Source: Bacteroidales bacterium
Lineage (GTDB): Bacteria > Bacteroidota > Bacteroidia > Bacteroidales > UBA12077
Direction: 5' to 3'
DNA length: 64,000 bases
Assembly: GCA_050179935.1 (NCBI GenBank)
Contig: JBFXEQ010000008.1
Location: 30,905 to 94,904, forward strand
Positions within the stretch are counted from its first letter, which is position 1, and every line of letters starts with the position of its first letter. The translations under genes and the position numbers were made by a program. The notes under the pieces were generated by a model. The model was not told where the DNA came from and made no database searches. It saw only the letters and a list, made by a program, of their open reading frames with translations. This document shows, in pieces, positions 22,310 to 64,000 of the stretch.

Positions 22310-23206
22310 TTATAATTTGTTTATTGGAATAAACTTAAAGGTTCCATCAATAAAGCGGGCAATTTTTGAAAGATCTTTGCCAGATCCACATTCATAAAAT
22401 TCATTAACCCCATCATTTAAAAGCATCTGCATGGTTTTATACCAATTTATTTTTGATGTAAGGTTATAAACCAGCTCTTTTCGAATTTCATCCACCGAAT
22501 TTATTGTCCTTTGATCATAGGTAGAAATTATTAAAAATTGGGGCGTATTTATCTCTAAGGTATTTATAAAACCTGCAAATCGATCAGCAAAACCGCTTAA
22601 ATATTTAGAATGATAAGGTGTTTTTACATTAAACTCCACGGCATTTAGTGCTCCTTCTGCTTTGGCCAACCCAAGAAGTATATTCACATTATGCTTTTTT
22701 CCGGCAATTACATGCGAAAACTCACTGTTTGTGTTAATAATTTCAATTTCAGAACTTGATTGATTTATTAATTGACTGATATCATCATTACTCAAACCAA
22801 TAACTCCGCCCATTCCATATTTTCCGGAGCAAGAAAGTTCATTAACCAGTTTAAAGGCATTAAAGATTATTTGAATTCCATCCTCCAATTTAATCGATCC
22901 AGCAGCATAAAGACTTGCATATATTCCCATGCTATAACCGGCAACAAAATCAGGTTTTACATCTTTTTTCTTCAATAAATCTGCAAAAGCACAGCTAAAT
23001 ATGTAGGCAATAATTTGCGCCAACAACTCATCTTTTTTATATTCGATAGCTGAATATGAGAATTCGGGCAAATCAATCCCCAATTTATTGGATGCCCTGT
23101 TGATATAGTCTTTAAAATTAATTCCAGAGCTAGCAATTGTCTCAATCTCTTTTTGCGTATAATCAGTTATAAAAGCAGGAAAAATAAATGCTCGCTTATG
23201 AATCAT
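22310..23206 (-). CDS. FabD-like acyl-carrier-protein S-acyl(malonyl)transferase
   Basis: 298 aa. It has the FIFPAF N-terminus, the nucleophile elbow GYSMG (GHSxG variant), and a His in KTPYHSKYL equivalent to the FabD AFHS. Confidence 0.7.
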   Translation of the reverse strand: MIHKRAFIFPAFITDYTQKEIETIASSGINFKDYINRASNKLGIDLPEFSYSAIEYKKDELLAQIIAYIFSCAFADLLKKKDVKPDFVAGYSMGIYASLYAAGSIKLEDGIQIIFNAFKLVNELSCSGKYGMGGVIGLSNDDISQLINQSSSEIEIINTNSEFSHVIAGKKHNVNILLGLAKAEGALNAVEFNVKTPYHSKYLSGFADRFAGFINTLEINTPQFLIISTYDQRTINSVDEIRKELVYNLTSKINWYKTMQMLLNDGVNEFYECGSGKDLSKIARFIDGTFKFIPINKL

Positions 23207-23214
23207 AAAGTACG

Positions 23215-23580
23215 TTAATTTAACAATAAAACTGTGCAGATTATATATTGATCTGTTTCTCTAAAGTTAATATCAATTTTTTTTATTCCTTTTTTTGCTA
23301 TTTCGATGGTTATTAATGCTGATGGTTCAATTTTATAATCATTCTCAGTAAAAAGAATTTCAATATCACACCAGCTTATATTTAATGAATTAATTGCTTT
23401 ATAAAATGCCTCTTTAAAACAAAAGCCTTTTAAAAAGGCTTTCTTACCATAGTATGAGTAATTCTCAATCTCTCGTGTTGTAAAAATATCATAAATCAAA
23501 TCGGACAGTATTCCATTTTGGAAATAATGTTTATCGAATCGGTTTATTTCTTCAATATCGATACCACATGAGAGTACCAT
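23215..23580 (-). CDS. AcpS-type 4'-phosphopantetheinyl transferase
   Basis: 121 aa. GIDIEEINRF and FCFKEAFYKA match the AcpS motifs. Confidence 0.75.
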   Translation of the reverse strand: MVLSCGIDIEEINRFDKHYFQNGILSDLIYDIFTTREIENYSYYGKKAFLKGFCFKEAFYKAINSLNISWCDIEILFTENDYKIEPSALITIEIAKKGIKKIDINFRETDQYIICTVLLLN

Positions 23581-23591
23581 TCGACATGAGT

Positions 23592-23897
23592 TTATTCGAA
23601 ATTTAAAATACTATTTTCGTGTTCAATTATTAATAACTGCATATCAATAAGTTCTCCAACCGTTTTTACCGGATGTTTAACTGCGTATTTACCTATTGTT
23701 TTTAATTCGATATTTAAGCTGTATTTCTTCTTGAAAATCTCGATAAGTTCAAGAAACATCAACGAGTCGCCATCTAAATCGCTAATAATATTTGTTTTAT
23801 CTGAAATATCTTCAATTGGAGTTTCACATTCTTCGGCAAAAAATTCGTAAACGATTGTTTTTACCTCTTCTTTTATTTTATCTGTAATCTGAGCCAT
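23592..23897 (-). CDS. Acyl carrier protein (divergent)
   Basis: 101 aa. DLDGDSLMFLELIE contains the DSL phosphopantetheine-attachment serine. Confidence 0.7.
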   Translation of the reverse strand: MAQITDKIKEEVKTIVYEFFAEECETPIEDISDKTNIISDLDGDSLMFLELIEIFKKKYSLNIELKTIGKYAVKHPVKTVGELIDMQLLIIEHENSILNFE

Positions 23898-23908
23898 TTT
23901 ATAATAAT

Positions 23909-24277
23909 TTATTCGCTGATTAATTTATCTACTTCTTCTTTTGTTAATTGGTTCCAATCCGGATTAATAAATTGGTTGTTTTCGATTGTAAAATCAACTC
24001 TGAAAAATGTTTCTCTATTAAATTCAAGTTTGGTATTTTTATCGGGAGTATGTTCAATAAAAACGAAATTATTAGGATTGATTTCAAATTTATTACATAA
24101 TTCCATCGCAAGCTTTGTATTCCATTCGGTAATTGATGTTCCAGGGTTTTTATCATATAAATCGGTTGCAATGACAATTGTATTATGGGCCTTCTTAACA
24201 ATTTTCAATCCACAAATCGATGGTAAATCCCAAAGGCCTTTAAAATTATATAACTGATCTTGATATTTATTCTCCAT
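23909..24277 (-). CDS. Hypothetical protein, no recognisable family
   Basis: 122-aa ORF packed 11-14 nt from both neighbours in the operon. No motif recognised. Confidence 0.55.
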   Translation of the reverse strand: MENKYQDQLYNFKGLWDLPSICGLKIVKKAHNTIVIATDLYDKNPGTSITEWNTKLAMELCNKFEINPNNFVFIEHTPDKNTKLEFNRETFFRVDFTIENNQFINPDWNQLTKEEVDKLISE

Positions 24278-24291
24278 ATTGCAATCTGAAT

Positions 24292-25566
24292 TTAAACAAT
24301 TTTTGAGCTAACAGATTTACCAAAACTAACTTTTGACAAATCCTGACGTCTTTTCTTATAGGTACCATCTTCTATTTCTCTTGAAACAACCTGTTTAAGT
24401 AATTTAAACATTTTCTCTTCCTGTGTTTCGTCTTTATAGAAAGTATCCCAGGCATATTGATATAATTCTTGTAATCTTTCAGCACTCATGTGTTTAGGAT
24501 GATAAACTACCTGACCTGCATTATAGTTATCCCAATTATGATCAAAAATTCTATTTTGCTTAACCAGATCGACATATGCTTTAGTATGCGGAAATGGGGC
24601 AAGAACAGTAAACTCAGCTAAATCTAGATCAATCTCGAGCAAGAAGTCGATTAATCGTTTTATATCATCCTCTGTTTGATCATCAAGACCAAGAAGAATA
24701 GTTCCTTCAACTCCAATTCCGTAATCGTGATATCTCTTAACGCGTTGCTTAATATAGTCGGAAGTATCAAATACCGCCTGATAAACATACCATGCACCTG
24801 CCTGTGCTGCTAAATCGAGCACTTCGGGTTTATCTTCGATGGTATGACTACACCATTTTTTCTTAAATGGGATCATGGCTTTAAACAGCTCTTTTTCCCA
24901 TTCGGTATCCTGAGCCAATGAATTATCAACAATAAATAATCTGTTATTATCAATGGTGGCAAGCTCTTCGACTACTTTGTGTACAGGTCGTGGTCTGAAA
25001 TGACGACCACCCAAATACGATACAGCACAAGGATAGCAACTATATTTACAGCCACGTGATGCATGAAACGTATCAACCATTTGTACTCCTTTGTGATAAT
25101 ATAAATCTCTCTTATAAAGTTCACGACGTGCAGGGCCCACAATTTCGATTGGAGGTAAATCGTTCATAAAATTGTAAACTTTTTTAAGTTCACCTTTCCT
25201 GAAATCATTAAAAACCTGATCCATATGACCTTCGGATTCGCCCAGGAAAACCGAATCGGCATGTAACATGGTTTCTTCAGCATGTAACATGGTTGAGATA
25301 CCACCGAAAATAACTTTTTTTCCACGTTTCCTATATTCATCAGCAATAGCCCATCCACGTTTTACCTGTGTAGTGAGGAGCATTGAAATTCCGACAAAAT
25401 CAACATTATCGTCGTAGCGCAATTCTTCTAAGTTCTCATCAATAAACTCAACCTCAAAATCGTTTGGAATGGCAGCTGCAAAAACAATTGCACCATGAGG
25501 TGGAAGATTAAATGTTGTTTGCCCTTCGAGTTTTCTCCATTTTGGAAATACTAATTGAAATTTCAT
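24292..25566 (-). CDS. B12-binding-domain radical SAM protein (paralog 2 of 3)
   Basis: 424 aa. It has an N-terminal B12-binding-like segment (VDFVGISMLLTTQ) and the motif CKYSCYPC. Confidence 0.8.
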   Translation of the reverse strand: MKFQLVFPKWRKLEGQTTFNLPPHGAIVFAAAIPNDFEVEFIDENLEELRYDDNVDFVGISMLLTTQVKRGWAIADEYRKRGKKVIFGGISTMLHAEETMLHADSVFLGESEGHMDQVFNDFRKGELKKVYNFMNDLPPIEIVGPARRELYKRDLYYHKGVQMVDTFHASRGCKYSCYPCAVSYLGGRHFRPRPVHKVVEELATIDNNRLFIVDNSLAQDTEWEKELFKAMIPFKKKWCSHTIEDKPEVLDLAAQAGAWYVYQAVFDTSDYIKQRVKRYHDYGIGVEGTILLGLDDQTEDDIKRLIDFLLEIDLDLAEFTVLAPFPHTKAYVDLVKQNRIFDHNWDNYNAGQVVYHPKHMSAERLQELYQYAWDTFYKDETQEEKMFKLLKQVVSREIEDGTYKKRRQDLSKVSFGKSVSSKIV

Positions 25567-25573
25567 ATATTAA

Positions 25574-26677
25574 TTATTTTGTTTTTATTTCACAGTATTT
25601 ATAATTATTCTGCGTCATCCAGGATTTTAAAACACTGTTAATTATTGTTTTGTTTTCCTCGGGTAATGTATATTTATTTTTTTGATAATCACTTATACTT
25701 AAAAGAAAATCATTTAGTTTCAAATCAAATTCGTTAGAATAATCGATATTAAAATGCTTGTATATCGCTTTTATTATTTCTTTTGGATTTTTCTCAAATT
25801 CCTCAAATTTAATCTCGTACTGTCGCTCTTCTGGTAATTTATTAAGATCGTTCTCAATTGTATTAAGCATATCATTTAATACTTCAGATACTTCTAAAAT
25901 TGTTGGTTTTTGCCAATGAGTATTCATCGAGTTTTGTGTACCAACAATATCCCACATTCGCTGAGTTGAAGGTACTACACTGTATGGATGCCTTATGATA
26001 TGCACATACCTGGCATTTGGAAAAATCTCATTTAAAACAGGTATTCGCAATGAATGAAATGGATTTTTTATAAGAATCGTTTTAGGGCTATAGATTAATA
26101 GTTTTTTATAAAAATAAATTAATGAATCTTTCCATTTCTGCAATTTTTCATTTTTTGGTAAAAACCCTGGGTAATTTTTTAAAAAATAGCCTCCTTTTTT
26201 TGGAAAGATAACTTGCTCCAAAGGCGAATAAACTGATAATCTGAATAAAGCATATTCATCTTCCAAAGGTTCGTCTAAGCCTAACTTAACCTGATCCATA
26301 GGCCGAGTACCTTTAATCATACGACTCATAAGCGGTTCGTACGATTTACGAGAGGTAAGAAAGCTATCGGGTATTGATGCCTGAAAAACTGTTGGAGTAA
26401 CAAAGTTTTGATCTAAACTTAATAACTGATGAAGAAAAGTACTACCAGTTCTCCAATGACCAATAATAATTACGGGATTATCAGATAGTTTTTGGTTTTT
26501 GATTTTTTCTCCATAAATCTTATTCTCTTTTCGGTGAAAAATTGAAGCCCACGCTCCATTTTGAAATAAGAATAAAAAGCGAACCAGATATTTCGGGTAA
26601 ATTGAAATACCATTTCGTGCAACAAGTTTTAAGAATCTTGTTAGTCTTGTTCCCGCAATAAGATATGCGCTTTTCAT
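25574..26677 (-). CDS. Sulfotransferase-family protein
   Basis: 367 aa. GHWRTGSTFLHQLL matches the PAPS 5'-phosphosulfate-binding loop. IIRHPYSVVPS matches the 3'-phosphate-binding R-x-P-x5-S region. Confidence 0.7.
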   Translation of the reverse strand: MKSAYLIAGTRLTRFLKLVARNGISIYPKYLVRFLFLFQNGAWASIFHRKENKIYGEKIKNQKLSDNPVIIIGHWRTGSTFLHQLLSLDQNFVTPTVFQASIPDSFLTSRKSYEPLMSRMIKGTRPMDQVKLGLDEPLEDEYALFRLSVYSPLEQVIFPKKGGYFLKNYPGFLPKNEKLQKWKDSLIYFYKKLLIYSPKTILIKNPFHSLRIPVLNEIFPNARYVHIIRHPYSVVPSTQRMWDIVGTQNSMNTHWQKPTILEVSEVLNDMLNTIENDLNKLPEERQYEIKFEEFEKNPKEIIKAIYKHFNIDYSNEFDLKLNDFLLSISDYQKNKYTLPEENKTIINSVLKSWMTQNNYKYCEIKTK

Positions 26678-26704
26678 TCGTTAACGATTATAAAAAATAT
26701 AAAT

Positions 26705-26980
26705 CTATGCCTTATTGTTTATTATAAAATCGGCAATTGTATTTACATTTTTTAATACTTCGCGGGCAAGATTCTGATCATCGATACGAACATTAAATTG
26801 TCTTTGAACAGCCATAACTAATTCAATAGCATCGATAGAATCGAGACCTAATGTATTTTCGCCTCCGAACAGTGGTATTTCATCATCAATATCAGCAGCA
26901 GCAATATCAGGAATGTTAAGTGTTTTAATAATCAGATCTTTAATCTCCAGCTTCAAATCATTTAGATTTTTTTCTTCCAT
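26705..26980 (-). CDS. Acyl carrier protein
   Basis: 91 aa. LGLDSIDAIELV is the canonical ACP attachment motif. Confidence 0.85.
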   Translation of the reverse strand: MEEKNLNDLKLEIKDLIIKTLNIPDIAAADIDDEIPLFGGENTLGLDSIDAIELVMAVQRQFNVRIDDQNLAREVLKNVNTIADFIINNKA

Positions 26981-26988
26981 CGTAAAAT

Positions 26989-28005
26989 TTAATTTAAACT
27001 TTTAACAACTAGTTTTAATTCTTTATAAAATGCCTCCTCAGCATCGGCACGATCAAGAATCATCTTACTAAGCTCGGTTAGTTTATCATGTCCCAGATCG
27101 CGGTTTTTACTAATTTTTGCAGCAAAGTAAGAAATATTTCTCCAACCATCTCCAATTTCCATCATCTTTTTTGACAAAACATCAAGTTCGGTACTATTAA
27201 ATAATTGAGCAGCTTGACGAAGAAAAGTAGCGTACATAAACCTAAAACCAGCTCCACCGGTTCCCTGATCTTCGAGAAAAATATTTATTTTGGTTATTTC
27301 GTGCGATAAATGATCTATATCGCGGGTAAGTTTTGGCCATCCAACAACTTTTCGTCCAAACATACGTATGCCTCTAATACCAATAAACGGAGGCTGAATA
27401 CCAATCATATTATTGATTGTTTCTTTAATTCCTTTGATGATAATTTTTTTTTGGTCAAACGATTGAGGAATAGAATCAATATAATACATAAATCCCTTGG
27501 GTGCTAAATATCCTTTAGCAAATCGGGCTTTTTGCAAACTACCTTTATGCAGCTTGGCAAGCTTCGGAAAATAACTATCGCTAACTATGTAATGATCGCC
27601 CTCTTTTCCTACAATAGTAATAAAATGAATATTTGCATGTACCCGCTCCCATTCAGGAATATAATCCATGTAATACAAATCAACCTGCACAGCAACAGGT
27701 ATTCCCTTTGCAATTAAAGAATCGAGCTGCTGTTCTGCTTTTTCGGGATTTCTGAATTTCTCTGATTTAAATTTAATACCAATTCTTTTGGCTACTTTTT
27801 TCCTTAGTTTACCAGGTTTTGTACGCAAAATAAACATTGGGAAATTTAAATTAGGAGTGTGCGTTAAATAACCAAAATAAAGTCCACTACCCATACCAAA
27901 AATCATTGGTTCGGTAATTGTAAGGCCTTTGTGGTTTAATAATGCAGTAAGTGTACCCGATTCGCAATGGGCAGCCATATTATGTTTAAAAGATTCAATA
28001 ATCAT
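26989..28005 (-). CDS. BtrH N-terminal-domain / DUF4872-like protein (papain-like Cys acyltransferase/peptidase fold), paralog A
   Basis: 338 aa. AAHCESGTLTALLNHKGL...IFGMGSGLYF matches the BtrH_N Cys motif. It aligns end to end with the 338-aa protein at 35843-36859. Confidence 0.65.
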   Translation of the reverse strand: MIIESFKHNMAAHCESGTLTALLNHKGLTITEPMIFGMGSGLYFGYLTHTPNLNFPMFILRTKPGKLRKKVAKRIGIKFKSEKFRNPEKAEQQLDSLIAKGIPVAVQVDLYYMDYIPEWERVHANIHFITIVGKEGDHYIVSDSYFPKLAKLHKGSLQKARFAKGYLAPKGFMYYIDSIPQSFDQKKIIIKGIKETINNMIGIQPPFIGIRGIRMFGRKVVGWPKLTRDIDHLSHEITKINIFLEDQGTGGAGFRFMYATFLRQAAQLFNSTELDVLSKKMMEIGDGWRNISYFAAKISKNRDLGHDKLTELSKMILDRADAEEAFYKELKLVVKSLN

Positions 28006-28006
28006 T

Positions 28007-28507
28007 TTATTTATTTAATTCGAATTTTGTAATTACTAAACATGAGTTTTGTGTTTTGGTTTGTTTAACACGATAATTTTTTTCGTTTGGTTTTCCGTCT
28101 TTAGTTTCATTATCTCTACCCTCAACAGTTATAACCTGAAATAAGTTCGAAACCGGAACATCAAATACTTCGGCATATTTTAATAAATCTGAAACAGTGG
28201 CTTTTTGAAATCCTTTTAATTTCAAATGTTTTTTAACTTTAAATATCGATAATCCAGCTCTACTCGATAATTCGTACACATTAAAATCGTGAATTATACG
28301 GTAATACTCAATCGGACTAATTTGGCATTCTTTAAGCTGATTTAACAACGAGAACCTTAATTTTTCCATTTTATCGAAAAAATCATCGATATAATTCTTT
28401 GATAAATGCGATCCGGTAACCAATGGTCCAAATGTGCCATCCTCTTTCTCTACATAAAGCAAGAGCTGATGAGGTTCGTAATCGACAAATGCTTCCTTTT
28501 CTTTCAT
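28007..28507 (-). CDS. Small HTH-like protein, paralog A (first gene of the minus arm)
   Basis: 166 aa. The segment ISPIEYYRIIHDFNVYELSSRAGLSIFKVKKHLKLKGFQKATVSDLLKYAEVFDVPVSNLFQ aligns with 35429-35833. It has an XRE/Cro-like helix-turn-helix appearance. Confidence 0.5.
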   Translation of the reverse strand: MKEKEAFVDYEPHQLLLYVEKEDGTFGPLVTGSHLSKNYIDDFFDKMEKLRFSLLNQLKECQISPIEYYRIIHDFNVYELSSRAGLSIFKVKKHLKLKGFQKATVSDLLKYAEVFDVPVSNLFQVITVEGRDNETKDGKPNEKNYRVKQTKTQNSCLVITKFELNK

Positions 28508-30435: not shown

Positions 30436-31164
30436 ATGAAATACGCATTAGTTACAGGTGGATCAAGGGGCATTGGAAAAGCAATCTGCTTAAGAATTGC
30501 TCAAATGGGATATACTGTAATCATTAACTATAGGAATAACGACGAAGAAGCGAATAATACACTCCAACTAATCAAATCTGAAGGAGGTAATGCTGAATTA
30601 TTAAAATTTGATGTTTCTGATCCTGAACAAATAAAATCTGCCATCGAAAACTGGAAATCAACCCATGCCGATCAGCATATTGAAGTTCTTATTAATAACG
30701 CTGGTATTCGCAAAGACGGGTTGATCATGTGGATGAAAGATGATGAATGGAATGATGTTATCTCAACCAATCTAAATAGTTTCTTTCAGGTAACCCGACT
30801 TCTTGTTACCGATATGCTTGTAAAAAGATATGGACGAATTGTAAATGTTGTGTCTTTATCGGGAATAAAGGGTTTACCAGGACAAACAAATTATTCAGCA
30901 GCAAAAGGAGGCGTAATTGCAGCCAGTAAAGCACTAGCACAGGAAGTAGCGAAGAAAAACGTTACTGTGAACTGTGTTGCTCCAGGTTTTATAAAAACTG
31001 ATATGACAAAAGAACTTGATGAGAATCAGTTAAAACAAATGATTCCAATGAGTCGGTTTGGAAAACCAGAAGAAGTAGCCGAAGCTGTGGCTTTTCTTGC
31101 ATCAGACAAAGCCTCGTATATTACAGGAGCAGTTATTTCAGTTAACGGAGGATTATATACATAA
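30436..31164 (+). CDS. fabG: 3-oxoacyl-ACP reductase (SDR)
   Basis: 242 aa. It has TGGSRGIGKAI (cofactor binding), NNAG, and the YSAAKGG catalytic YxxxK. Confidence 0.9.
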   Translation: MKYALVTGGSRGIGKAICLRIAQMGYTVIINYRNNDEEANNTLQLIKSEGGNAELLKFDVSDPEQIKSAIENWKSTHADQHIEVLINNAGIRKDGLIMWMKDDEWNDVISTNLNSFFQVTRLLVTDMLVKRYGRIVNVVSLSGIKGLPGQTNYSAAKGGVIAASKALAQEVAKKNVTVNCVAPGFIKTDMTKELDENQLKQMIPMSRFGKPEEVAEAVAFLASDKASYITGAVISVNGGLYT

Positions 31165-32439: not shown

Positions 32440-32688
32440 ATGGATAAGCAGGAGATTATTACCAAAATAAACAGCTTTTTAATTGAGGAATTCGAACTTG
32501 AAGAAAACCAGTTACAGCCAAATGCAAGTTTAAAAGAGACCTTAGAGATAGATAGCCTTGATTATGTTGATTTGGTAGTTATTATAGAAAGAAACTTCGG
32601 ATTCAAAGTAAAAGGAGGAGATTTTGCCACCATAAAAACACTCCAGGATTTTTATGACTACATCATAAAACATGCTAATTCGAATTAA
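32440..32688 (+). CDS. Acyl carrier protein
   Basis: 82 aa. LEIDSLDYVDLV is the attachment motif. Confidence 0.85.
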   Translation: MDKQEIITKINSFLIEEFELEENQLQPNASLKETLEIDSLDYVDLVVIIERNFGFKVKGGDFATIKTLQDFYDYIIKHANSN

Positions 32689-51979: not shown

Positions 51980-51992
51980 AATTTACAAAACT

Positions 51993-55049: not shown

Positions 55050-58000
55050 ATGTCCGAAATTATAACATCCCTTTTCGACAGGATCCAAAAATCAAGAATT
55101 ATATTTATCCTTTTAATGCTAGGCATTTTAGGACTTTCGGTTTTTTTTGCTTCGAAAATCCGGTTTGAGGAAGATATAACAAAAATGTTGCCTTCGGATA
55201 AGCAAATTGCCAAAATAAACTTGGTTTCTCAGAATCTTAATTTTGCCGACAAACTAATTGTAAGTCTATCATTATCTGATACTAATTCATTAGCTGCTCC
55301 CGAAAAACTAATTAACATTGCTGATCAGTTATATAACGGATTAACAGCGCTTCAACCAGATTATGTTTCTGAAATCACTTATTCTGTTTCAGAAAATGTT
55401 ATCTCCGATTTGTACGATATTTACCTAAACAACCTTCCTGTTTTTCTCGATAAGGATGATTACATCAAAATTGATAGTTTGCTTAGCCAATCTGCAATTG
55501 ATAATGCTATAAAAAACAATTACAAAACGCTTATTTCACCTGCCAGCATGGTAATGAAACAGTTTGTAGTTAAGGATCCACTTCATTTAACACCTATTGC
55601 ATTAAACCGACTGAGTTCATTTCAAGTTGATGAAAACCATACTATTTACCAAGGAAAAGTATTTACAAAAGATCATAAAAACCTGACATTATTTTTAACC
55701 ACTACTTATCCATCATCCGAAACAAATAAAAACGGGGTTCTAATTCAAAAGCTGGATCAAATAATTGACAGTTTGAATGTTAGTTATCAGAATGAATATA
55801 AAATTCAATACTATGGAGCAGCTGCTGTTGCAGTAGGTAATGCAAACAGAATAAAAACAGATATTTCGGTAACCCTTTCTATTGCTATCATTGGATTAAT
55901 TATATTTTTAAGTTTGTTTTTCAGAAAAAAGAGTATTTTCTTTTTAATCTTTCTTCCTGCCCTACTCGGTGGCACTGTAGCTGTTGCAGCAATGTTTTTA
56001 ATAAAAGGGAAAGTATCAGTAATTTCGCTGGCTTTTGGTTCTGTGTTATTAGGTATTACGGTTGATTTCTCCTTACATCTGTTTGCTCATTTAAAAAGTA
56101 TTGGATCGATCAGAAAAGTAATAAAAGATATTGCCCTTCCGGTAATGGTAAGTAGTTCGACAACTGCATTTGCATTTCTCTGTTTGCTTTTTGTTAGTTC
56201 GCGTGCATTGCAAGATATGGGTTTATTTGCAGCTATTGCAGTTTTTCTTGCAGCACTTTTTTCAATTACTGTATTGCCCCAACTTATCAGATACAATCCA
56301 AATGACAATTACGAGCGACCTCCCAAAAACTATATCGAAAGGTTTACCTCCTATCAATTTGAGAAAAACAAATATGTGTTGTTTTTTATCGTTGCATTTA
56401 CTGTTGTCTCATTATTTTTTACAAGTAAACCTACTTTCGAAAATGAATTAGACAATATGAATTACATGTCCGATAAGCTAAAACAAGCTGAAAAAAACTT
56501 AAACAAAACATCGCAAGTAACTTTAAAATCTGTGTACCTGGTTTCGTATGGCACGAATCTACAGGAAGCACTCGAAAACTCAGAAAAAACGCTACCAACG
56601 CTCGACTCGCTTAAACAACAAAAAATCATCAATCAATATACCTCTGTTAGCTCCATTCTTATTTCAGAATCTCTTCAAAAAGAAAGAATTGATCGATGGA
56701 ATAATTTTTGGACACAAGAGAAGAAGAACGAAATCAGAAACAACATTATTAAGTCAGGATTAGAGGTTAAATTTAAACAAGATGCTTTTAACTCTTTTTT
56801 CGAACTGTTGGATAAAGATTTTCAGCCTATTCAAATAGATCAGTTGGGTAATTTATATCCTTTATTTGTCAAAGATTACGTTACGATACATGACAGCATT
56901 ACTACCGTTGTAAATATTCTTAAGACCGAAGAAAACCTAAAACCTACAGTTTATAGCTCGTTCGAAAATCAGGAGAATAACATTGTCTTCGATAAAAAAT
57001 ACATGACAAACAGTTTAGTAAAAGCACTAAAAGACGATTTAAGCTTACTTGTAAACCTTTCATTGTTAGTTGTTTTTGCTATCCTTTTATTATCATTCGG
57101 TCGAATTGAACTTGCCATAATTACAATAATCCCAATGATAATAAGCTGGATCTGGACTTTGGGAATAATGGGGATGTTTAATATTCATTTTACCATCTTT
57201 AACATTGTAATTTCCACATTTATCTTCGGGTTAGGCGATGATTACAGTATTTTCATTATGCGTGGCCTCTTGCAAGAGTATAAATATGGCGAGAAGAACG
57301 TTGAATCATTTAAAACATCTATTTTATTATCGGTTATTACAACATTGGTCGGAATTGGAGTGCTAATTTTTGCTAAACATCCGGCACTAAGATCAATAGC
57401 ATTGCTTTCAATTATAGGAATTGTTTCAGTAATTGTAATTTCTTACACTTTAATTCCATTTATTGTAAATCACTTTTTGCTTACACGAAAAAATAAGGCT
57501 AAAGTAGCCTACTCGTTACAAGAAGTAATAAATTCGAGTATTGCCTGGACAATTTTTATCGGAACGTCCATTCTTGTTACAATTTTTGGGTTTATACTAT
57601 TTAAAGTATTGCGGTTAAAAAATAATTGGGCAAAAATAATATTCAATAAATCGATTGTTGCTTCTTCTGCCTTTTTGTTTTATGGAATGTTCAATATTCG
57701 TAAAAAAATAATAAATCCAACAAAAGAAAAACTTAAGAAACCAGCCATTGTCATTTGCAACCATCAATCGCATATCGATTTGGTATATAACCTGCAGATT
57801 TCGTCAAAGCTTATTGTTTTAACTAATGATTGGGTTCAGAATAGCAAAATATATGGCAAGATTGTTCAGATGGCCGATTTTTACCCAGTTTCTGAAGGAT
57901 ATGAAAATCTTTTACCCAGACTTCGCGAAAAGGTGAACGAAGGATATTCAATCCTGGTATATCCTGAAGGAACAAGGTCTGCAGATTTAAAGATGAAACG

Positions 58001-58910
58001 TTTCCATAAAGGAGCTTTTTATTTGGCAGAAATGCTGAATCTCGATATTGTACCAATAATATTCCACGGAACTGGTTATTGCATGACCAAAGGAGATGAT
58101 TTACTGGTTAAAAACGGAACTATATATGTTCGATACCTTGATAGAATTACTCCCGAGAATAAAGATTACGGATCAACCTATTCTGAAAGAGCCAAACAGA
58201 TTAGTAAATACATGAAAAACGTTTACAATCAGATGCGTTCTGAAATTGAAGATACAGGGTATTATCGCGATAAACTGATAAAAAACTACATATATAAAGG
58301 ACCTGTTCTTGAGTGGTATTTAAAAGTTAAGCTGAAACTCGAGAACAATTATGAGCTGTTTAATAAGCTAATACCCCGAAAAGGTAAAATTTATGACATT
58401 GGTTGTGGTTATGGATATATGTCGTATATTCTTCATTTTGTTTCAGAAGAGAGAATTATTAAAGGTATTGATTACGACGAAGAAAAAGTTTTAGTTGCTA
58501 ACAATTGCCCCTCAAAAAATGAAAAGATAAACTTCGAAAGTGCTGATATTACGAAATACCAATTCGAGCCAGCGGATGTTTTTCTGTTAAGTGATGTGTT
58601 GCATTACATCCCCAAACAAAAGCAAGAGGAGCTTATCGATAGAATGGTAAATAATTTGAATGATAATGGAATGATCATTATTCGAGACGCAAACACAAAT
58701 CTTAAAAAACGACATAAGGGAACAAAATTTACGGAGATTTTCTCAACAAAAATTCTAGGTTTTAATAAAACAGCCGATGAATCGAAACAGTTGTATTTTG
58801 TTTCAGAAGATAGAATCAGGAGTATATTCAGCAAGTACAACCTAAATGTAGAAGTAATTGATGAAACAAAGCATACTTCGAATGTTTTGTATGTAATTAG
58901 AAAAATATAA
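55050..58910 (+). CDS. Triple-fusion protein: MMPL/RND-like exporter + PlsC-type acyltransferase + class-I SAM methyltransferase
   Basis: 1286 aa. Residues ~1-800 form two 5-6-TM bundles separated by soluble loops (MMPL layout). VICNHQSHIDL (HX4D) and YPEGTRS are the PlsC motifs I/III. IYDIGCGYGYMS is SAM motif I, and LLSDVLHY follows near the C-terminus. Confidence 0.8.
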   Translation: MSEIITSLFDRIQKSRIIFILLMLGILGLSVFFASKIRFEEDITKMLPSDKQIAKINLVSQNLNFADKLIVSLSLSDTNSLAAPEKLINIADQLYNGLTALQPDYVSEITYSVSENVISDLYDIYLNNLPVFLDKDDYIKIDSLLSQSAIDNAIKNNYKTLISPASMVMKQFVVKDPLHLTPIALNRLSSFQVDENHTIYQGKVFTKDHKNLTLFLTTTYPSSETNKNGVLIQKLDQIIDSLNVSYQNEYKIQYYGAAAVAVGNANRIKTDISVTLSIAIIGLIIFLSLFFRKKSIFFLIFLPALLGGTVAVAAMFLIKGKVSVISLAFGSVLLGITVDFSLHLFAHLKSIGSIRKVIKDIALPVMVSSSTTAFAFLCLLFVSSRALQDMGLFAAIAVFLAALFSITVLPQLIRYNPNDNYERPPKNYIERFTSYQFEKNKYVLFFIVAFTVVSLFFTSKPTFENELDNMNYMSDKLKQAEKNLNKTSQVTLKSVYLVSYGTNLQEALENSEKTLPTLDSLKQQKIINQYTSVSSILISESLQKERIDRWNNFWTQEKKNEIRNNIIKSGLEVKFKQDAFNSFFELLDKDFQPIQIDQLGNLYPLFVKDYVTIHDSITTVVNILKTEENLKPTVYSSFENQENNIVFDKKYMTNSLVKALKDDLSLLVNLSLLVVFAILLLSFGRIELAIITIIPMIISWIWTLGIMGMFNIHFTIFNIVISTFIFGLGDDYSIFIMRGLLQEYKYGEKNVESFKTSILLSVITTLVGIGVLIFAKHPALRSIALLSIIGIVSVIVISYTLIPFIVNHFLLTRKNKAKVAYSLQEVINSSIAWTIFIGTSILVTIFGFILFKVLRLKNNWAKIIFNKSIVASSAFLFYGMFNIRKKIINPTKEKLKKPAIVICNHQSHIDLVYNLQISSKLIVLTNDWVQNSKIYGKIVQMADFYPVSEGYENLLPRLREKVNEGYSILVYPEGTRSADLKMKRFHKGAFYLAEMLNLDIVPIIFHGTGYCMTKGDDLLVKNGTIYVRYLDRITPENKDYGSTYSERAKQISKYMKNVYNQMRSEIEDTGYYRDKLIKNYIYKGPVLEWYLKVKLKLENNYELFNKLIPRKGKIYDIGCGYGYMSYILHFVSEERIIKGIDYDEEKVLVANNCPSKNEKINFESADITKYQFEPADVFLLSDVLHYIPKQKQEELIDRMVNNLNDNGMIIIRDANTNLKKRHKGTKFTEIFSTKILGFNKTADESKQLYFVSEDRIRSIFSKYNLNVEVIDETKHTSNVLYVIRKI

Positions 58911-59035: not shown

Positions 59036-60529
59036 ATGCCCAAATACGATGTTGTAATTATAGGAAGCGGATTAGGAGGATTACTTTGCGGAGCAATACT
59101 TAGCAAAGAAGGCAAATCTGTATGCATTCTCGAAAAGCATCATCAGTTTGGCGGTAACCTGCAAACTTTTAAGCGTGATGGTAAAATATTCGATACCGGA
59201 TTTCATTATATCGGCGGGTTAAACAAAGGACAAAACCTTTATCAGTATTGGGATTATATTGGAATTATTGATAAACTTAAGCTCAAACGATTAGACACTG
59301 ATTGCTTTGACAGAATTGGGTTTAATACTCAGGAATATTGCTTTGCACAAGGATTTGACAACTTTATCGAAAATTTATTATTTAAATTTCCTTCAGAAAA
59401 AAATGCATTAACCATTTACAAATCTAAAATAAAGGAAGTTTGTAATCATTTTCCACTTTACAATCTTCAGCAGCCCAATAATATAAGCTCAGAACAGCAA
59501 TACCTGGAAACCAGTATTGGTGATTTTTTGGCATCGATAACCACCAATAAAACTTTACAACATGTACTTGCCGGAAACAATATGTTGTATGCCGGATCAC
59601 CAGAAAAAACATCACTTGGAATCCACGCGCTAATCGAGAACTCTTTTATCGATGGAGGGGCGTATCGTTTTATTGATGGAAGTTCACAAATAACTGATCA
59701 TCTGGTAAATATAATAAAAAAAAATGGAGGGGTTTTAAAAAGGAATAGCGAAGTGATCAATTTTACAAATAAAAATGATCAACTCTGTTCTGCTCAGCTT
59801 AAAAATGGAGAACAAATTGAAGGACAAAAATTTATATCAGCAATTTCGCCCTATTCAACTCTTAATATGATTGATTCAGATTTAATCCGAAAACCATATC
59901 GTGACCGAATAAATGGCTTGAAAGAAACCATTTCTGCGTTTATTTTATATGTATCATTTAAACCAGATACATTTAACTTTTTAAACTATAATTATTATCA
60001 CCATAATCAAAATTCGGTTTGGACAATCAATGAATATGATGCTGATAAATGGCCTCAGAACTATTTGTTTTTAACTCCCCCATCTGCTGTTTCAGAAGAA
60101 TACGCTCAAACAGCTACAGCCCTAACTTACATGAAATTTGATGAACTAAATGCATGGGAGAGCACAAAAACAGGACGCCGTGGTGCAGATTATGATGATT
60201 TTAAACAACAAAAAGCAGAAAAACTAATCCTCGAAATTGATAAAAAGTTCCCTGGTTTTAAAAACAGTATTCAAAACTATTACACTTCCACGCCCCTAAG
60301 CTATCGCGACTACACGGGAACACGATTTGGTTCGTTGTATGGAATTGAGCATGACTGCCGCAATGCATTAAAAACATCAATTCTGGTGCGAACCAAGATA
60401 CCTAATTTATTATTAACCGGACAGAATATTAACCTGCACGGTGCGTTAGGAGTAACTGTTGGATCGGTTATGACTTGCTCCGAAATACTTGGTACAGATT
60501 ATTTATTACAAAAAATCAATAATGCATAA
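59036..60529 (+). CDS. FAD-dependent oxidoreductase of the phytoene-desaturase (CrtI-like) family
   Basis: 497 aa. YDVVIIGSGLGGLLCGAILSKEGKSVCILEKHHQFGGN is the dinucleotide-binding motif, and the C-terminus reads LLLTGQNINLHGALG. Confidence 0.8.
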   Translation: MPKYDVVIIGSGLGGLLCGAILSKEGKSVCILEKHHQFGGNLQTFKRDGKIFDTGFHYIGGLNKGQNLYQYWDYIGIIDKLKLKRLDTDCFDRIGFNTQEYCFAQGFDNFIENLLFKFPSEKNALTIYKSKIKEVCNHFPLYNLQQPNNISSEQQYLETSIGDFLASITTNKTLQHVLAGNNMLYAGSPEKTSLGIHALIENSFIDGGAYRFIDGSSQITDHLVNIIKKNGGVLKRNSEVINFTNKNDQLCSAQLKNGEQIEGQKFISAISPYSTLNMIDSDLIRKPYRDRINGLKETISAFILYVSFKPDTFNFLNYNYYHHNQNSVWTINEYDADKWPQNYLFLTPPSAVSEEYAQTATALTYMKFDELNAWESTKTGRRGADYDDFKQQKAEKLILEIDKKFPGFKNSIQNYYTSTPLSYRDYTGTRFGSLYGIEHDCRNALKTSILVRTKIPNLLLTGQNINLHGALGVTVGSVMTCSEILGTDYLLQKINNA

Positions 60530-62210
60530 ACTAAAAAGAATAGGTAAAATCCTGATAAAATCCTTAGCTATTTTAGCTTTGGTAATAATTATACTAATGG
60601 TTGCTTTTAAGTTAATAACAAGGCTTAATACACCAGAAATAACCAATAACGAAATCGAGAACTTACAGGTAACGCAAATCGATTCATCATTTTATTTTAT
60701 AAAGAATAACTGGCTACAGAAAAACGATCATGGTTTATGGGAGATGTATATCGAGGGTGAAGCTTACGAAAGAGGCATTATCAATGGAAAACTAACTAAA
60801 AAACTGATTGAAAAGCAGGAGAATGCATTTATAAACCAAATTAAAGTTATGATTCCTTCAGAGTCGTATCTTAAATTTTTAAAAAACTTCCTTGCATTCT
60901 TTAATCGCAATATTGATAAGCATGTTATTCCAGAATATTTAAATGAGATTTATGGAATCTCGCAATCAGCATCGGAACAATTCAATTTTATTGGATCTAA
61001 TTACCATCGAATTTTAAATTATCATGCTGCGCACGATATTGGTCATGCTTTGCAAAACATGAATCTTGTTGCATGTACCGCTTTTGCAGGATGGGATTCA
61101 AATTCCGAGGATAGTTCGCTAATTATTGGACGCAATTTCGATTTTTATGTGGGTGATGAGTTTGCCGAGGATAAAATAATTATGTTTTGCAATCCGGAAA
61201 ATGGCTACAAGTTTATGATCATAACCTGGGGCGGAATGATTGGAGCCACATCAGGAATGAACGATCAAGGGTTAACAGTAACATTAAATGCTTCAAAATC
61301 ATCCATCCCATTTGGAGCAGCAACACCAATTTCTTTAGTTGCCCGAGAAATTTTACAGTACGCCTCAACTATTGATGAAGCATATGAGATAGCTAAAAAA
61401 CGAAAAACATTTGTGTCCGAATCGTTATTTATTGGATCGGCAAAAGATGAAAAAACAGCTATAATTGAGAAATCACCCGATAAACAAGCTCTATTCGAAA
61501 CAAATACTGATTTTATAATTTGCAGTAATCATTTTCAGAACAAAGATATGACTCATCCTGAATTATTAAATGCTGACACATCTGATTATGCCACACTTTA
61601 CCGATTTAAGCGTGTAAATGAGTTATTCGAACAAAACCCAAAACTGAATATTCATAAAGTTGTTCAAATCTTGAGAAATCAAAATGGTTTAAACAATAAA
61701 AATATCGGGATGGGAAACGAAAAGGCTGTTAACCAACTAATTGCACACCATGCTGTTATATTTAAACCTGAAGAGCTAAAAGTTTGGGTTTCAACATCGC
61801 CATTTCAACTGGGTGAGTTTGTATGTTACGATCTGAAAAAGGTATTTGAAAATGCAGAATCAATAAAATCCATTCAAGTTATAAACGAAGAGAATTTAAC
61901 CATACCGGCCGATTCGTTTTTATTTTCAAATGATTATCAAAAATTTAACCGATTTAAAGAGATACGAAATCAAATTCAGGCTGCCATAAAATCAAACCAA
62001 AAGATTATCGACGAAGATTATCTTTTTAATGAGATTATTGAACTTAATCCAGAGTTTTTCGAGACCTATGTTTATTTGGGCGATTATTTCTCCCATTTTA
62101 GCATAACTGACAAAGCTGCTCTGGCCTATAAAAAATCGCTTACAAAAGAAATCCCGAATATTTATCAGGCTGAAAATATAAAATCAAAACTCAACAACTT
62201 AACCAAATAG
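60522..62210 (+). CDS. C45-family (acyl-CoA:6-aminopenicillanic-acid acyltransferase-like) Ntn protein with N-terminal TM anchor
   Basis: VACTAFAGW is the candidate Cys nucleophile. SLIIGRNFDF and GMIGATSGMNDQGLTVTLN are typical C45 motifs. The start is set at the ATG 60522 (MHKLKRIGK...), overlapping the upstream stop by 8 nt. Confidence 0.65.
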   Translation: MHKLKRIGKILIKSLAILALVIIILMVAFKLITRLNTPEITNNEIENLQVTQIDSSFYFIKNNWLQKNDHGLWEMYIEGEAYERGIINGKLTKKLIEKQENAFINQIKVMIPSESYLKFLKNFLAFFNRNIDKHVIPEYLNEIYGISQSASEQFNFIGSNYHRILNYHAAHDIGHALQNMNLVACTAFAGWDSNSEDSSLIIGRNFDFYVGDEFAEDKIIMFCNPENGYKFMIITWGGMIGATSGMNDQGLTVTLNASKSSIPFGAATPISLVAREILQYASTIDEAYEIAKKRKTFVSESLFIGSAKDEKTAIIEKSPDKQALFETNTDFIICSNHFQNKDMTHPELLNADTSDYATLYRFKRVNELFEQNPKLNIHKVVQILRNQNGLNNKNIGMGNEKAVNQLIAHHAVIFKPEELKVWVSTSPFQLGEFVCYDLKKVFENAESIKSIQVINEENLTIPADSFLFSNDYQKFNRFKEIRNQIQAAIKSNQKIIDEDYLFNEIIELNPEFFETYVYLGDYFSHFSITDKAALAYKKSLTKEIPNIYQAENIKSKLNNLTK

Positions 62211-62260: not shown

Positions 62261-62282
62261 CAAGCATTCAAAACACATAACT

Positions 62283-63170
62283 ATGAAAATCAGACTTTTA
62301 ATTCAGGTACTAATTTTTGCCATATTGCTACAATCGTGTAAAAGCAGTTCATTTGTTTCAAAAATTTCAGAAGAAGCCGAAATAGCTTATAAAGCAGGTG
62401 ATTATGAGAAAGCCCTTGCTGTTTGTGAAAAAGAAATAACCGAAAAAGAAGCCAAGGGCAAAAGGGCAATAGGTCCTGTGTATGTTGGAGCTGGCAAAGC
62501 CTCACTCGAATTAAATCAAATAGATAAAGCACGAAAATACCTCGAAACAGCCAGAAGCTTAAGTTACTCATCACCTGATATGTATGAGTCACTTGCCCAG
62601 GTTTACCAAAGCATTGATAATCTTTCAAAAGAAATAACTGCTCTCGAAAATTATAAAAAGTTTTATCCACAAGGAGAAAAAACGACGACTATAAACATTC
62701 GTCTATTTGAAACTTATATTGAAAGTGAAAATTGGGAGCTAGCAAATAAATTATGGCCTGAGATTGAGCCGCAAGCTCAAAATGAAGTTAAGCTATTAAG
62801 TGGATATCTTCTGGTAAACAAGAAACTCGAAAACAATGCTGGCTGCGATAAATTGGCTCAGCAGGTATTAAAATTAGATGCTTCAAATATTACTGCACTT
62901 GAATGGTACGCAGAAAAATATTACTGGAAAGCTGAAAATTTGTATCTCTCAGAGATGAAAGCCTACAAAGCAAAAAGAACAAATAGCCAATACAGCAGAT
63001 TACTTAAAGCGTTGGAACAGGTTTATCCTGATTTTAGAAAATCGCGCGATTATTATTTAAAACTATATAAAATAGACCCTAAAAAGGAATATGCAAATTT
63101 TTTAGGCAATATTTTTACCCGATTAGATGATAAAACGAAGGCCGAATATTATTACAAAAAAGCGAAGTAA
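62283..63170 (+). CDS. TPR-like lipoprotein
   Basis: 295 aa. It has a signal peptide with lipobox LLQSC and helical repeats with a TPR-like A/Y/L spacing. Confidence 0.65.
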   Translation: MKIRLLIQVLIFAILLQSCKSSSFVSKISEEAEIAYKAGDYEKALAVCEKEITEKEAKGKRAIGPVYVGAGKASLELNQIDKARKYLETARSLSYSSPDMYESLAQVYQSIDNLSKEITALENYKKFYPQGEKTTTINIRLFETYIESENWELANKLWPEIEPQAQNEVKLLSGYLLVNKKLENNAGCDKLAQQVLKLDASNITALEWYAEKYYWKAENLYLSEMKAYKAKRTNSQYSRLLKALEQVYPDFRKSRDYYLKLYKIDPKKEYANFLGNIFTRLDDKTKAEYYYKKAK

Positions 63171-63180
63171 TTTAAGCTTG

Positions 63181-63360
63181 GTTAACTGGTGAATTTGTAA
63201 AAAGGTGAACTGGTAAATTAGTTTAATTGTAATCTTGTTAACATTAAACTAATAAACTAACAAACTAATAAACAAGTAAACTGTTGAATAAGTTCTTCAA
63301 AACACGAAATGCGAAATGCGAAACACGAAATACGAAACACGAAACTAAATTCCAGTTCAC
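63181..63360. repeat. Inverted-repeat-bounded block of tandem octamers and heptamers
   Basis: gtgaactgg (63205-63213) is the perfect reverse complement of ccagttcac (63352-63360). Between them lie 5 tandem octamers YAAACTAA-like (63245-63283) and 6 tandem heptamers AYRCGAA (63302-63343). Confidence 0.6.
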
Positions 63361-63405
63361 AGCAAAAATATTTTCAGTTTGTACCCGCTTTTAAGTTTTA
63401 GATAG

Positions 63406-63413
63406 TAAATTTG
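63406..63413 (+). promoter_or_regulatory. -7 promoter box (TAAATTTG)
   Basis: Exact TAnnTTTG match, 22 nt upstream of the ATG at 63435. Confidence 0.3.
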
Positions 63414-63434
63414 AAGCTTGTTAAAAAACAACAC

Positions 63435-64000
63435 ATGAAATCTTTTCCCGAAGAAATTGACTTTAAGTCAACAGAAGAAATTAAAAAGTACCAGGAAGAA
63501 AAACTACAGGAACTACTCGAATATGTAAATAACAACTCAGCATTTTATTCCGAACTTTTTAAAAAGAACGACATTAAAGTACCTGAAATTAAAACACTTA
63601 ACGATCTTCGTAAGCTACCCTTTACCTCAAAAGATGATTTATATTTAAGAAACGATGATTTTTTGTGTGTTAGTCGCAACAAGATCGTTGACTATATTAC
63701 AACCTCAGGTACATTAGGTGATCCGGTTACTTTTGCGATGACCGATTCTGATCTTGAACGATTAGCTTATAATGAATGTAAATCATTTAAAATATCGGAT
63801 GGCAAACCTGAAGATATTTACCAGCTTATGGTTACACTTGATCGTAGGTTTATGGCTGGGTTAGCTTATTTTCTAGGAATTAAAAAACTTGGAGCAGGCA
63901 TGGTTCGTGTTGGAAACGGAATGATAGAACTGCAATGGGATACTATTAAACGTATAAAGCCAAACGCACTCGTTGCTGTTCCATCGTTTATTCTTAAACT
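63435..64000 (+). CDS. Phenylacetate-CoA ligase (PaaK)-like adenylate-forming enzyme, N-terminal part (runs off window)
   Basis: The frame is open from the ATG 63435 to the window end. LPFTSKDDL, YITTSGTLGDPV (the TSGTTG-type P-loop) and IKPNALVAVPSFILK match the PaaK / coenzyme F390 synthetase-like family. It is not in the ORF track because no stop lies in the window. Confidence 0.75.
   Translation, partial: MKSFPEEIDFKSTEEIKKYQEEKLQELLEYVNNNSAFYSELFKKNDIKVPEIKTLNDLRKLPFTSKDDLYLRNDDFLCVSRNKIVDYITTSGTLGDPVTFAMTDSDLERLAYNECKSFKISDGKPEDIYQLMVTLDRRFMAGLAYFLGIKKLGAGMVRVGNGMIELQWDTIKRIKPNALVAVPSFILK

Follow-up and report, generated by a model that had tools for sequence, protein, structure and literature searches.

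A probable flexirubin-type pathway in a Bacteroidales bacterium with its polyene genes and a darA-darB pair on separate contigs

A stretch of DNA from an uncultured Bacteroidales bacterium (lineage UBA12077; GenBank assembly GCA_050179935.1, contig JBFXEQ010000008.1) carries a gene cluster resembling the known aryl-polyene and flexirubin gene sets, without darA and darB for dialkylresorcinol (DAR) synthesis. This raises the question of whether the cluster belongs to a flexirubin pathway or to a different one. The stretch, here called the window, has 64,000 nucleotides (C8:30905-94904) and a G+C content of about 32%; the genome (G000, with contigs designated C8, C46 and so on) consists of 127 contigs, amounts to 3.6 Mb and is 98% complete. 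A sequence-only reading of the window had taken the lack of darA and darB as a hint that the product might be something other than a classical flexirubin. That argument lost its ground when a search of the genome revealed the pair on contig C46, while darG, darH and the ATP-binding cassette (ABC) transporter genes were found within the cluster itself. The window probably carries the genes for the polyene part of a flexirubin-type pathway along with its accessory genes; the DAR half, darA-darB, is located on another contig of the genome.

All substantial open reading frames (ORFs) from position 17172 to the window end were translated and scanned against Pfam and NCBIfam (Table 1). Supplementary Tables S4 and S5 of Schöner et al. 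2014 (PMC3992019) served for a comparison of gene order with Chitinophaga pinensis and Flavobacterium johnsoniae. Starting at 28888 and running past the window end, the plus-strand genes were collinear with C. pinensis flxA-flxY and F. johnsoniae Fjoh_1109-1075, the order flxA-flxE matching Cpin_1853-1857 and Fjoh_1109-1104. FlxA, FlxB, FlxY, LolB2 and two DarH-family proteins passed the flexirubin-specific NCBIfam equivalog models. These results uphold the sequence-only assignment of the cluster to the aryl-polyene/flexirubin type. In F. johnsoniae UW101 (Fjoh_1075-1110; McBride 2009, tabulated in Table S5 of PMC3992019), the genes follow one another as in the window: tyrosine ammonia-lyase, short-chain dehydrogenase/reductase (SDR), ketosynthase (KS), acyl carrier protein (ACP), lysophospholipid acyltransferase (LPLAT), dehydratase, DarG, DarH, ABC ATPase, ABC permease and thioesterase, and then KS, KS-like protein, ACP, KS, chain length factor (CLF), deacetylase, LolA, LolB-like protein, dehydratase, family 2 glycosyltransferase (GT2), exporter/acyltransferase, reductase, C45 acyltransferase and CoA ligase.

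Every gene type listed by the sequence-only reading was recovered. The ammonia-lyase of the 4-methylideneimidazole-5-one (MIO) type, the FabG-type reductase and the three Cys-His-His ketosynthases with their Cys-less partner are all present, and an alignment of the KS-related proteins, from which the active sites were read, showed these to be intact in KS1, KS2 and KS3. A fifth KS-related gene, flxL (40719-41414), had been overlooked. The four ACPs (starts at 23592, 26705, 32440 and 41418), both hotdog dehydratases, the 4HBT thioesterase, the LPLAT, the NodB deacetylase, the LolA-like protein and the lipoprotein were located by Pfam and NCBIfam where they had been placed. The GT2, the MMPL exporter, the methyltransferase, the CrtI-like oxidoreductase and the PaaK-like ligase are there as well, but exporter and methyltransferase form one protein (55050-58910) together with a PlsC-type acyltransferase. 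Missing from the earlier list were DarG/DarH, the ABC transporter, the C45 acyltransferase, a tetratricopeptide repeat (TPR) protein, three B12-binding radical S-adenosylmethionine (radical-SAM, rSAM) proteins, a sulfotransferase, a phosphopantetheinyl transferase (PPTase) and a FabD-like protein. Full-length orthologues of the fused exporter, FlxU, occur in relatives; its triple fusion was rejected as a lineage-specific trait, as C. pinensis FlxU has the same architecture.

Family scans detected no enoyl reductase (FabI, FabK, FabV or medium-chain dehydrogenase/reductase type) anywhere in the window, in line with the earlier observation and consistent with a conjugated polyene; the clusters of F. 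johnsoniae and C. pinensis lack one too. The KS, CLF, ACP, ketoreductase and dehydratase genes form a set like that of type II fatty acid synthase (FAS) without an enoyl reductase, in which FlxB is the sole SDR of the cluster and matches the flexirubin ketoreductase model. FlxV belongs to the usual gene complement of flexirubin clusters, so it tells nothing about whether the chain is saturated. The C. pinensis FlxA has a selectivity motif like that of histidine ammonia-lyase (HAL), yet prefers tyrosine over phenylalanine about 1000-fold (PMC3992019); a HAL-like motif in the FlxA of the window is therefore expected and gives no hint of histidine use.

In F. johnsoniae, deletion of darB leads to pigment loss. 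Neither darA nor darB is present in the window, in agreement with the sequence-only reading. A whole-genome search for FabH-type C-terminal domains returned three loci, and darB was identified at C46:13026-14168, with 600 bits against the DarB model (cut-off, 550). Directly 5' of it lies a darA candidate of 306 amino acids (aa) (C46:12080-13000). This candidate gave no match in Pfam or NCBIfam and was recognised by a homologue search instead, in which full-length homologues at 61-65% identity carried the NCBI name "dialkylresorcinol condensing enzyme DarA." A DarB-DarA pair is thus encoded at C46:12080-14168, outside the window, in the middle of its contig and among unrelated neighbours. The 408-aa gene just 3' of darB (L004:9249-10475, equal to C46:14248-15474 of G000) has two tandem adenylate-kinase matches and resembles a duplicated or fused adk.

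The possibility, raised in the earlier reading, that darAB sit immediately downstream of the window was ruled out. Contig C8 ends 1119 bp past the window and 377 bp past its last gene, flxY, and other genes are found at this place in relatives: in four of them with long contigs darAB do not follow flxY, and in three FabF-like and FabH-like genes do. In this genome the FabF-like/FabH-like genes are positioned mid-contig at C2:105224-112808, a synteny break after flxY; a strong hairpin and the beginning of another ORF lie in C8:95647-96023, close to the contig end.

In close relatives, darB is likewise located on another contig than the flx cluster, and a complete genome from the same genus (4.6 Mb) has flxA at 0.96 Mb and darB at 1.39 Mb, 430 kb apart. 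A sample of 201 genomes from the order of the window was used for counts, a genome being scored FlxA-positive when it passed the NCBIfam FlxA cut-off. FlxA was found in 48/201 genomes and DarB in 26/201, with 22 carrying both (Fisher p = 2e-12). Among these 22, flxA and darB lie within 30 kb on one contig in 7 and show no close linkage in 15. Unlinked darAB are thus the commoner state in the order, and nothing about the product follows from the lack of the pair in the window. They are also unlinked from the flx genes in C. pinensis, a proven flexirubin producer (PMC3992019).

The darG, darH, ABC ATPase and ABC permease genes of the window have counterparts in C. pinensis (darG, H, I and J) and in F. 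johnsoniae (Fjoh_1098-1095). In Lentimicrobiaceae and other metagenome-assembled genomes (MAGs), darA-darB directly precede a dehydratase-DarG-DarH-ABC module. They also do so in F. johnsoniae, but with two hypothetical genes between dehydratase and darG. A tree of the DarH family placed DarH of the window in the clade of darAB-linked DarH proteins. In the lineage of the window, the dehydratase-DarG-DarH-ABC module has stayed in the flx operon and darAB have moved away.

Comparison with the two published clusters revealed further similarities and differences. C. pinensis (Schöner et al. 2014, PMC3992019) resembles the window in that flxA and flxY bound the polyene cluster, darAB are unlinked, FlxU is an exporter/acyltransferase/methyltransferase fusion and a holo-ACP synthase is encoded in the cluster. 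It differs in having darG, H, I and J together with darAB in a separate darA-J locus, whereas they stand with the flx genes in the window, and in possessing FlxJ (a methyltransferase) and FlxK (a halogenase). F. johnsoniae has darA-darB between LPLAT and dehydratase, the slot taken in the window by a radical-SAM gene of family TIGR04072. Unlike F. johnsoniae, the window has no halogenase, an efflux insert between lolA and lolB2, and a divergent arm with sulfotransferase, ACP, BtrH-like and rSAM genes. The published gene tables of C. pinensis and F. johnsoniae list no radical-SAM gene, and that of C. pinensis no sulfotransferase either. The cluster is largely an ordinary flexirubin-type cluster with the known split-darAB arrangement, and its newness lies in the radical-SAM/sulfotransferase accessory genes.

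In the proposed pathway, FlxA would deaminate tyrosine to 4-coumarate and FlxY would convert this to 4-coumaroyl-CoA, by analogy with the C. pinensis orthologues, whose tyrosine ammonia-lyase and 4-coumarate-CoA ligase activities were shown biochemically (PMC3992019). KS1-KS3, the CLF-like partner, FlxB and the two dehydratases are predicted to extend this starter with malonyl units on dedicated ACPs. With no enoyl reductase, a double bond would be left in each round and an aryl-polyenoyl-ACP would result. DarB and DarA, encoded on C46, would provide a 2,5-dialkylresorcinol. The transfer of the polyenoyl chain from the ACP to the DAR hydroxyl is most likely carried out by DarH, an ACP-dependent acyltransferase of the BtrH type. 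In butirosin biosynthesis, BtrH passes an acyl group from an ACP to an acceptor; this precedent and the constant association of DarH with darAB put DarH first among the candidates for the esterifying enzyme. FlxW, a C45 enzyme, is an alternative candidate proposed by Schöner et al. (PMC3992019). LolA, LolB2, FlxU, GT2, the deacetylase and the ABC transporter would place the pigment in the outer membrane. The PPTase and the FabD-like enzyme of the divergent arm would supply holo-ACP and malonyl-ACP, probably serving all four ACPs, and the ACP/BtrH-like/sulfotransferase/rSAM line, together with rSAM2, probably modifies the polyene chain or produces another acyl partner.

The divergent arm is transcribed in the order DarG-like protein, BtrH2, ACP2, sulfotransferase, rSAM1, unk122, ACP1, PPTase and FabD-like protein. 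The sulfotransferase is of the type using 3'-phosphoadenosine-5'-phosphosulfate (PAPS), and among solved structures the CurM and olefin synthase (OLS) sulfotransferases (4gbm and 4gox) are closest to it, the match to 4gbm being weak (E = 1e-9 over about 120 residues). Its P-loop RTGST and the 3'-phosphate-binding region are conserved, and as the genome contains two genes for adenosine-5'-phosphosulfate (APS) kinase, PAPS should be available. Activating sulfotransferases of CurM/OLS act on ACP-bound beta-hydroxyacyl chains, after which a thioesterase decarboxylates the chain and eliminates sulfate. As in the CurM/OLS off-loading module, the sulfotransferase of the window stands beside an ACP and an acyl-ACP-cleaving enzyme. 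In contrast to that module, the window has free-standing proteins with a BtrH-like Cys enzyme as the partner, and the similarity is weak as given above; no alpha/beta-hydrolase thioesterase such as that of the CurM/OLS module was found beside the sulfotransferase, which an ACP adjoins.

Orthologues of the sulfotransferase (at least 40% identity) were detected in 11/201 genomes of at least eight families. Ten of the 11 are FlxA-positive (p = 2.5e-6), and TIGR04072 is present in 9 (p = 1e-8). The BtrH2-ACP2-sulfotransferase triad is kept in at least seven families, wherever enough flanking DNA was fetched. In the families examined it adjoins flxY or flxA, often with a DarG-like gene and ABC genes of its own. 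The BtrH2 proteins form a clade apart from DarH in the DarH-family tree (support, 100/100). Of the genomes sampled, only three combine FlxA, DarB, TIGR04072 and the sulfotransferase: the present one, its genus mate and one more.

Three B12-binding radical-SAM genes belong to the region. The family of rSAM2, TIGR04072, has the NCBI name "lipid biosynthesis B12-binding/radical SAM protein" and the model short name rSAM_ladder_B12; by its score, its two domains and its lipid/polyene cluster context rSAM2 is a member of this family, and it occupies the LPLAT-dehydratase slot. TIGR04072 was found in 21/201 genomes, 18 of them FlxA-positive (p = 3e-10), which corresponds to 18/48 FlxA-positive genomes, and in several of these the gene is 3-5 kb from flxA. 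We know of no reaction for a TIGR04072 protein in either a ladderane-type or a flexirubin setting. The "ladderane-type" lipid clusters of anammox bacteria and Desulfotalea (Rattray 2009, PMC2649909; review, PMC13459092) share with the window a B12-binding radical-SAM protein, FabF paralogues, a dedicated ACP, a FabZ-like dehydratase, a phytoene-desaturase-like flavoprotein and a polysaccharide deacetylase; unlike them, the window has a tyrosine-derived starter (FlxA, FlxY) and dar genes, and there is no hint of cyclobutane lipids. The identity of rSAM1 to its counterparts is 87-93% in close relatives and 69-76% in two genomes of distant families (G103 and G132); rSAM0 is conserved in relatives and in the same two genomes. 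Two further B12 radical-SAM paralogues lie outside the cluster (C59:441-1712 and C22:2068-3345), one TIGR04072-like at 316 bits, below the cut-off, and the other 29% identical to rSAM1. No relevant paper turned up in a literature search on flexirubin or aryl-polyene clusters that contain sulfotransferase or radical-SAM genes.

These conserved sulfotransferase, BtrH-like, ACP and B12 radical-SAM genes make a nonclassical, further tailored product possible, and the pigment may carry extra tailoring. The statistical tie of these genes to FlxA but not to DarB suggests that they act on the polyene side. A farther-reaching view, which we regard as less likely than not, is that an undescribed aryl-polyene branch exists in anaerobic Bacteroidales, in which the DarG-like/BtrH-like/ACP/CurM-like sulfotransferase module, usually with B12 radical-SAM proteins, those of the "ladderane-type" TIGR04072 among them, acts on the ACP-bound aryl-polyene or coumaroyl starter. 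The pigment could then be sulfated, sulfate-activated (e.g., decarboxylated to a terminal alkene), radical-alkylated or cyclised, and the module could replace the DAR partner in most carriers and add to DAR in this genus.

Several observations weigh against the assignment of the window to a DAR-containing flexirubin pathway. The darAB pair is unlinked from the cluster, and DarB is missing in 26/48 FlxA-positive genomes of the order, which makes a DAR-free aryl polyene a real alternative in this group. Only 3/11 sulfotransferase genomes are DarB-positive (p = 0.16); as the sulfotransferase arm tracks FlxA and not DarB, and TIGR04072 is without known reaction, the end product could differ from a classical flexirubin. 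A halogenase and a separate FlxJ methyltransferase are both absent from the cluster, no experimental proof of the esterifying enzyme was found for any flexirubin producer, and the predicted chemistry is read from genes; the closest relatives found are all MAGs.

Three other explanations were weighed against the flexirubin-type assignment. In the DAR-free case, the aryl-polyene chain would be placed on another acceptor by LPLAT, the FlxU acyltransferase, BtrH2 or GT2, and darAB would make free dialkylresorcinols (e.g., for signalling or as antioxidants). The location of darAB on another contig among unrelated neighbours, the many FlxA-positive genomes without DarB, and the absence of DarB (at E <= 1e-40; completeness at least 96%) from 8/10 other sulfotransferase/BtrH2 genomes are in keeping with such a lipid. 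Set against them are the darG, darH and ABC genes, which are contiguous with darAB elsewhere and embedded in this flx operon, the strong enrichment of DarB in FlxA-positive genomes and the same darAB/flx split in the proven producer C. pinensis; we consider this explanation quite improbable. It is also unlikely, if a little less so, that two products are made, with the plus-strand genes producing a standard flexirubin and positions 17172-28507 constituting an independent, adjacent pathway to a sulfated or rSAM-alkylated acyl compound. The arm does have its own ACPs, PPTase and FabD-like enzyme, and in two genomes (G055 and G201) the ABC/DarG2/BtrH2/ACP2/sulfotransferase module is carried on another contig than flxA. 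However, the arm is without a ketosynthase of its own, the sulfotransferase orthologues are almost confined to FlxA-positive genomes and co-occur with the in-cluster TIGR04072 gene, and the module adjoins flxY or flxA in every family examined.

The sequence-only reading had further considered that the KS/ACP set might be a duplicated housekeeping FAS, as the FAS II-like nature of its components (FabF-, FabG-, FabZ- and FabD-like proteins and ACPs) could suggest. Separate Fab paralogues are encoded elsewhere in the genome (FabF-like on C5 and C2, FabG on C9, FabD on C38 and FabH on C31) and are only 22-38% identical to the cluster proteins; together with the missing enoyl reductase, the flexirubin models passed and the collinearity, they rule out this explanation, to which we attach next to no probability. 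An aryl-polyene (Ape) cluster of the E. coli/Xenorhabdus type was rejected on account of FlxA, FlxY and DarG/DarH in the cluster and darAB in the genome; Ape-type clusters use a 4-hydroxybenzoate-type starter and have no ammonia-lyase and no dialkylresorcinol genes.

The conserved unit extends upstream of the arm. A gene for a TonB-dependent-receptor-like protein has the same position in four relatives (G002, G004, G006 and G116); in G103 and G132, which represent distant families, it adjoins rSAM1 and unk122. The desulfoferrodoxin-like and 204-aa genes are conserved in the same four relatives, which keep the entire gene arrangement between 17172 and flxY at protein identities down to about 50-75%. 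Since the genes at 17172-22255 are conserved together with the arm, the unit starts at 17172 and not at 22310. The nearest relatives found are MAGs labelled Bacteroidales or Bacteroidetes, e.g., GWF2_33_16 and GWB2_32_14. An Rfam scan of the window gave no match, including none to a cobalamin riboswitch before the receptor-like gene or the rSAM genes. Within the otherwise tightly packed flx operon, a 265-bp spacer (38912-39175), also without an Rfam match, separates the ABC permease gene from the thioesterase gene. The flxL gene overlaps the 3' end of KS2 by 50 nucleotides (40719-40768), and the pair is kept in all relatives; its C. pinensis counterpart, FlxL, is listed as a "condensing enzyme."

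The efflux module that was noticed earlier as interrupting the cluster is inserted in the export genes, between lolA and lolB2. It was found at this place only in the window, in the nearest relative (L007) and in one further MAG (L010). It is missing in seven of ten close relatives, namely L008, L009, L011-L014 and G116, which include the complete genome of the same genus. In these seven, lolA and lolB2 overlap or are separated by 0-30 bp, which rules out the module as an integral exporter of the pathway. The efflux module is a strain-variable passenger insertion and no pathway component. Its TetR gene (51993-52600) is split in the window into an N-terminal ORF of 120 aa and a remainder in another frame, and is full length (199-213 aa) in both relatives with the insert. 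The mechanically called LolB2 ORF (52563-53447; 294 aa, TTG start) is over-extended, the model matching only from residue 88; as orthologues measure 220-235 aa, the start was placed near 52761.

Table 1. Features of the window, with positions, strand and basis of assignment.
Feature	Position	Strand	Basis
TonB-dependent-receptor-like outer-membrane protein (CarboxypepD_reg + weak Plug)	17172-19526	+	Pfam
rSAM0, B12-binding radical-SAM, weakly HpnR/BchE-like	19572-20915	+	Pfam/NCBIfam, no equivalog match
Desulfoferrodoxin-like 129-aa protein	21039-21428	+	Pfam/NCBIfam
204-aa protein, family unknown	21641-22255	+	Pfam/NCBIfam scans
FabD-like malonyl-CoA:ACP transacylase	22310-23206	-	Pfam/NCBIfam
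AcpS-type PPTase	23215-23580	-	Pfam/NCBIfam; counterpart of C. pinensis FlxX, holo-ACP synthase
ACP1	23592-23897	-	Pfam/NCBIfam
unk122, 122-aa protein	23909-24277	-	Pfam/NCBIfam scans
rSAM1, B12-binding radical-SAM	24292-25566	-	Pfam/NCBIfam
PAPS-type sulfotransferase	25574-26677	-	Sulfotransfer_3, E = 4e-29
ACP2	26705-26980	-	Pfam/NCBIfam
BtrH2, second DarH-family BtrH-like acyltransferase	26989-28005	-	DarH model, 337 bits vs 300
DarG-like 166-aa protein	28007-28507	-	DarG family, 49 bits, under cut-off
flxA, MIO-type tyrosine ammonia-lyase	28888-30429	+	NF053541 FlxA model, 801 bits vs cut-off 700
flxB, FabG-type SDR ketoreductase	30436-31164	+	NCBIfam FlxB, 409 bits vs cut-off 340
KS1/flxC, Cys-His-His ketosynthase	31194-32417	+	Pfam, alignment
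ACP3/flxD	32440-32688	+	Pfam
LPLAT/flxE	32724-33620	+	Pfam
rSAM2, B12-binding radical-SAM of TIGR04072	33624-34982	+	TIGR04072 equivalog, 420.6 bits vs 360; B12-binding + radical-SAM Pfam domains
DH1/flxF, hotdog dehydratase	34961-35404	+	Pfam
darG	35429-35833	+	DarG_fam (subfamily model), 135 bits vs 70
darH, BtrH-like acyltransferase	35843-36859	+	DarH model, 461 bits vs 300
ABC ATPase	36859-37617	+	Pfam
ABC-2 permease	37628-38911	+	Pfam
4HBT thioesterase/flxH	39176-39604	+	Pfam
KS2/flxI, Cys-His-His ketosynthase	39608-40768	+	Pfam, alignment
flxL, KS-like, 231 aa, Cys-less, N-terminal domain only	40719-41414	+	Pfam, alignment
ACP4/flxM	41418-41672	+	Pfam
KS3/flxN, Cys-His-His ketosynthase	41694-42893	+	Pfam, alignment
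flxO, Cys-less CLF-like partner	42896-43960	+	Pfam, alignment
Polysaccharide deacetylase (NodB)/flxP	43957-44718	+	Pfam
LolA-like carrier/flxQ	44711-45349	+	Pfam
Efflux insert: MarR, TolC-like outer-membrane efflux protein (OEP), HlyD-type adaptor, AcrB-type resistance-nodulation-division (RND) pump, P-II-like protein, split TetR	45470-52600	+	Pfam
LolB2_flexi lipoprotein/flxR	about 52761-53447	+	LolB2_flexi model, 148.5 bits vs 60
DH2/flxS, hotdog dehydratase	53448-53819	+	Pfam
GT2+DUF2062/flxT	53828-55039	+	Pfam
flxU, one 1286-aa protein: MMPL/RND exporter + PlsC-type acyltransferase + SAM methyltransferase	55050-58910	+	Pfam
CrtI/retinol-saturase-like flavoprotein/flxV	59036-60529	+	Family scans, published gene table
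C45 N-terminal nucleophile (Ntn) acyltransferase/flxW	60489-62210	+	Family scans, published gene table
TPR protein	62283-63170	+	Family scans
flxY, PaaK-like 4-coumarate-CoA ligase	63411..64000, cut by window end; full gene C8:94315-95646	+	NF053551, 707.9 bits (full-length) vs 520

These results indicate that missing darAB in a window should not be taken as a sign of new chemistry. Here a flexirubin operon includes a B12 radical-SAM gene of TIGR04072, a family that has been connected with candidate ladderane-lipid clusters, and a CurM-like sulfotransferase/ACP/BtrH-like module is tied statistically to flxA across many families. The Bacteroidales clusters would give a second setting for asking what TIGR04072 proteins do to polyunsaturated acyl-ACP.

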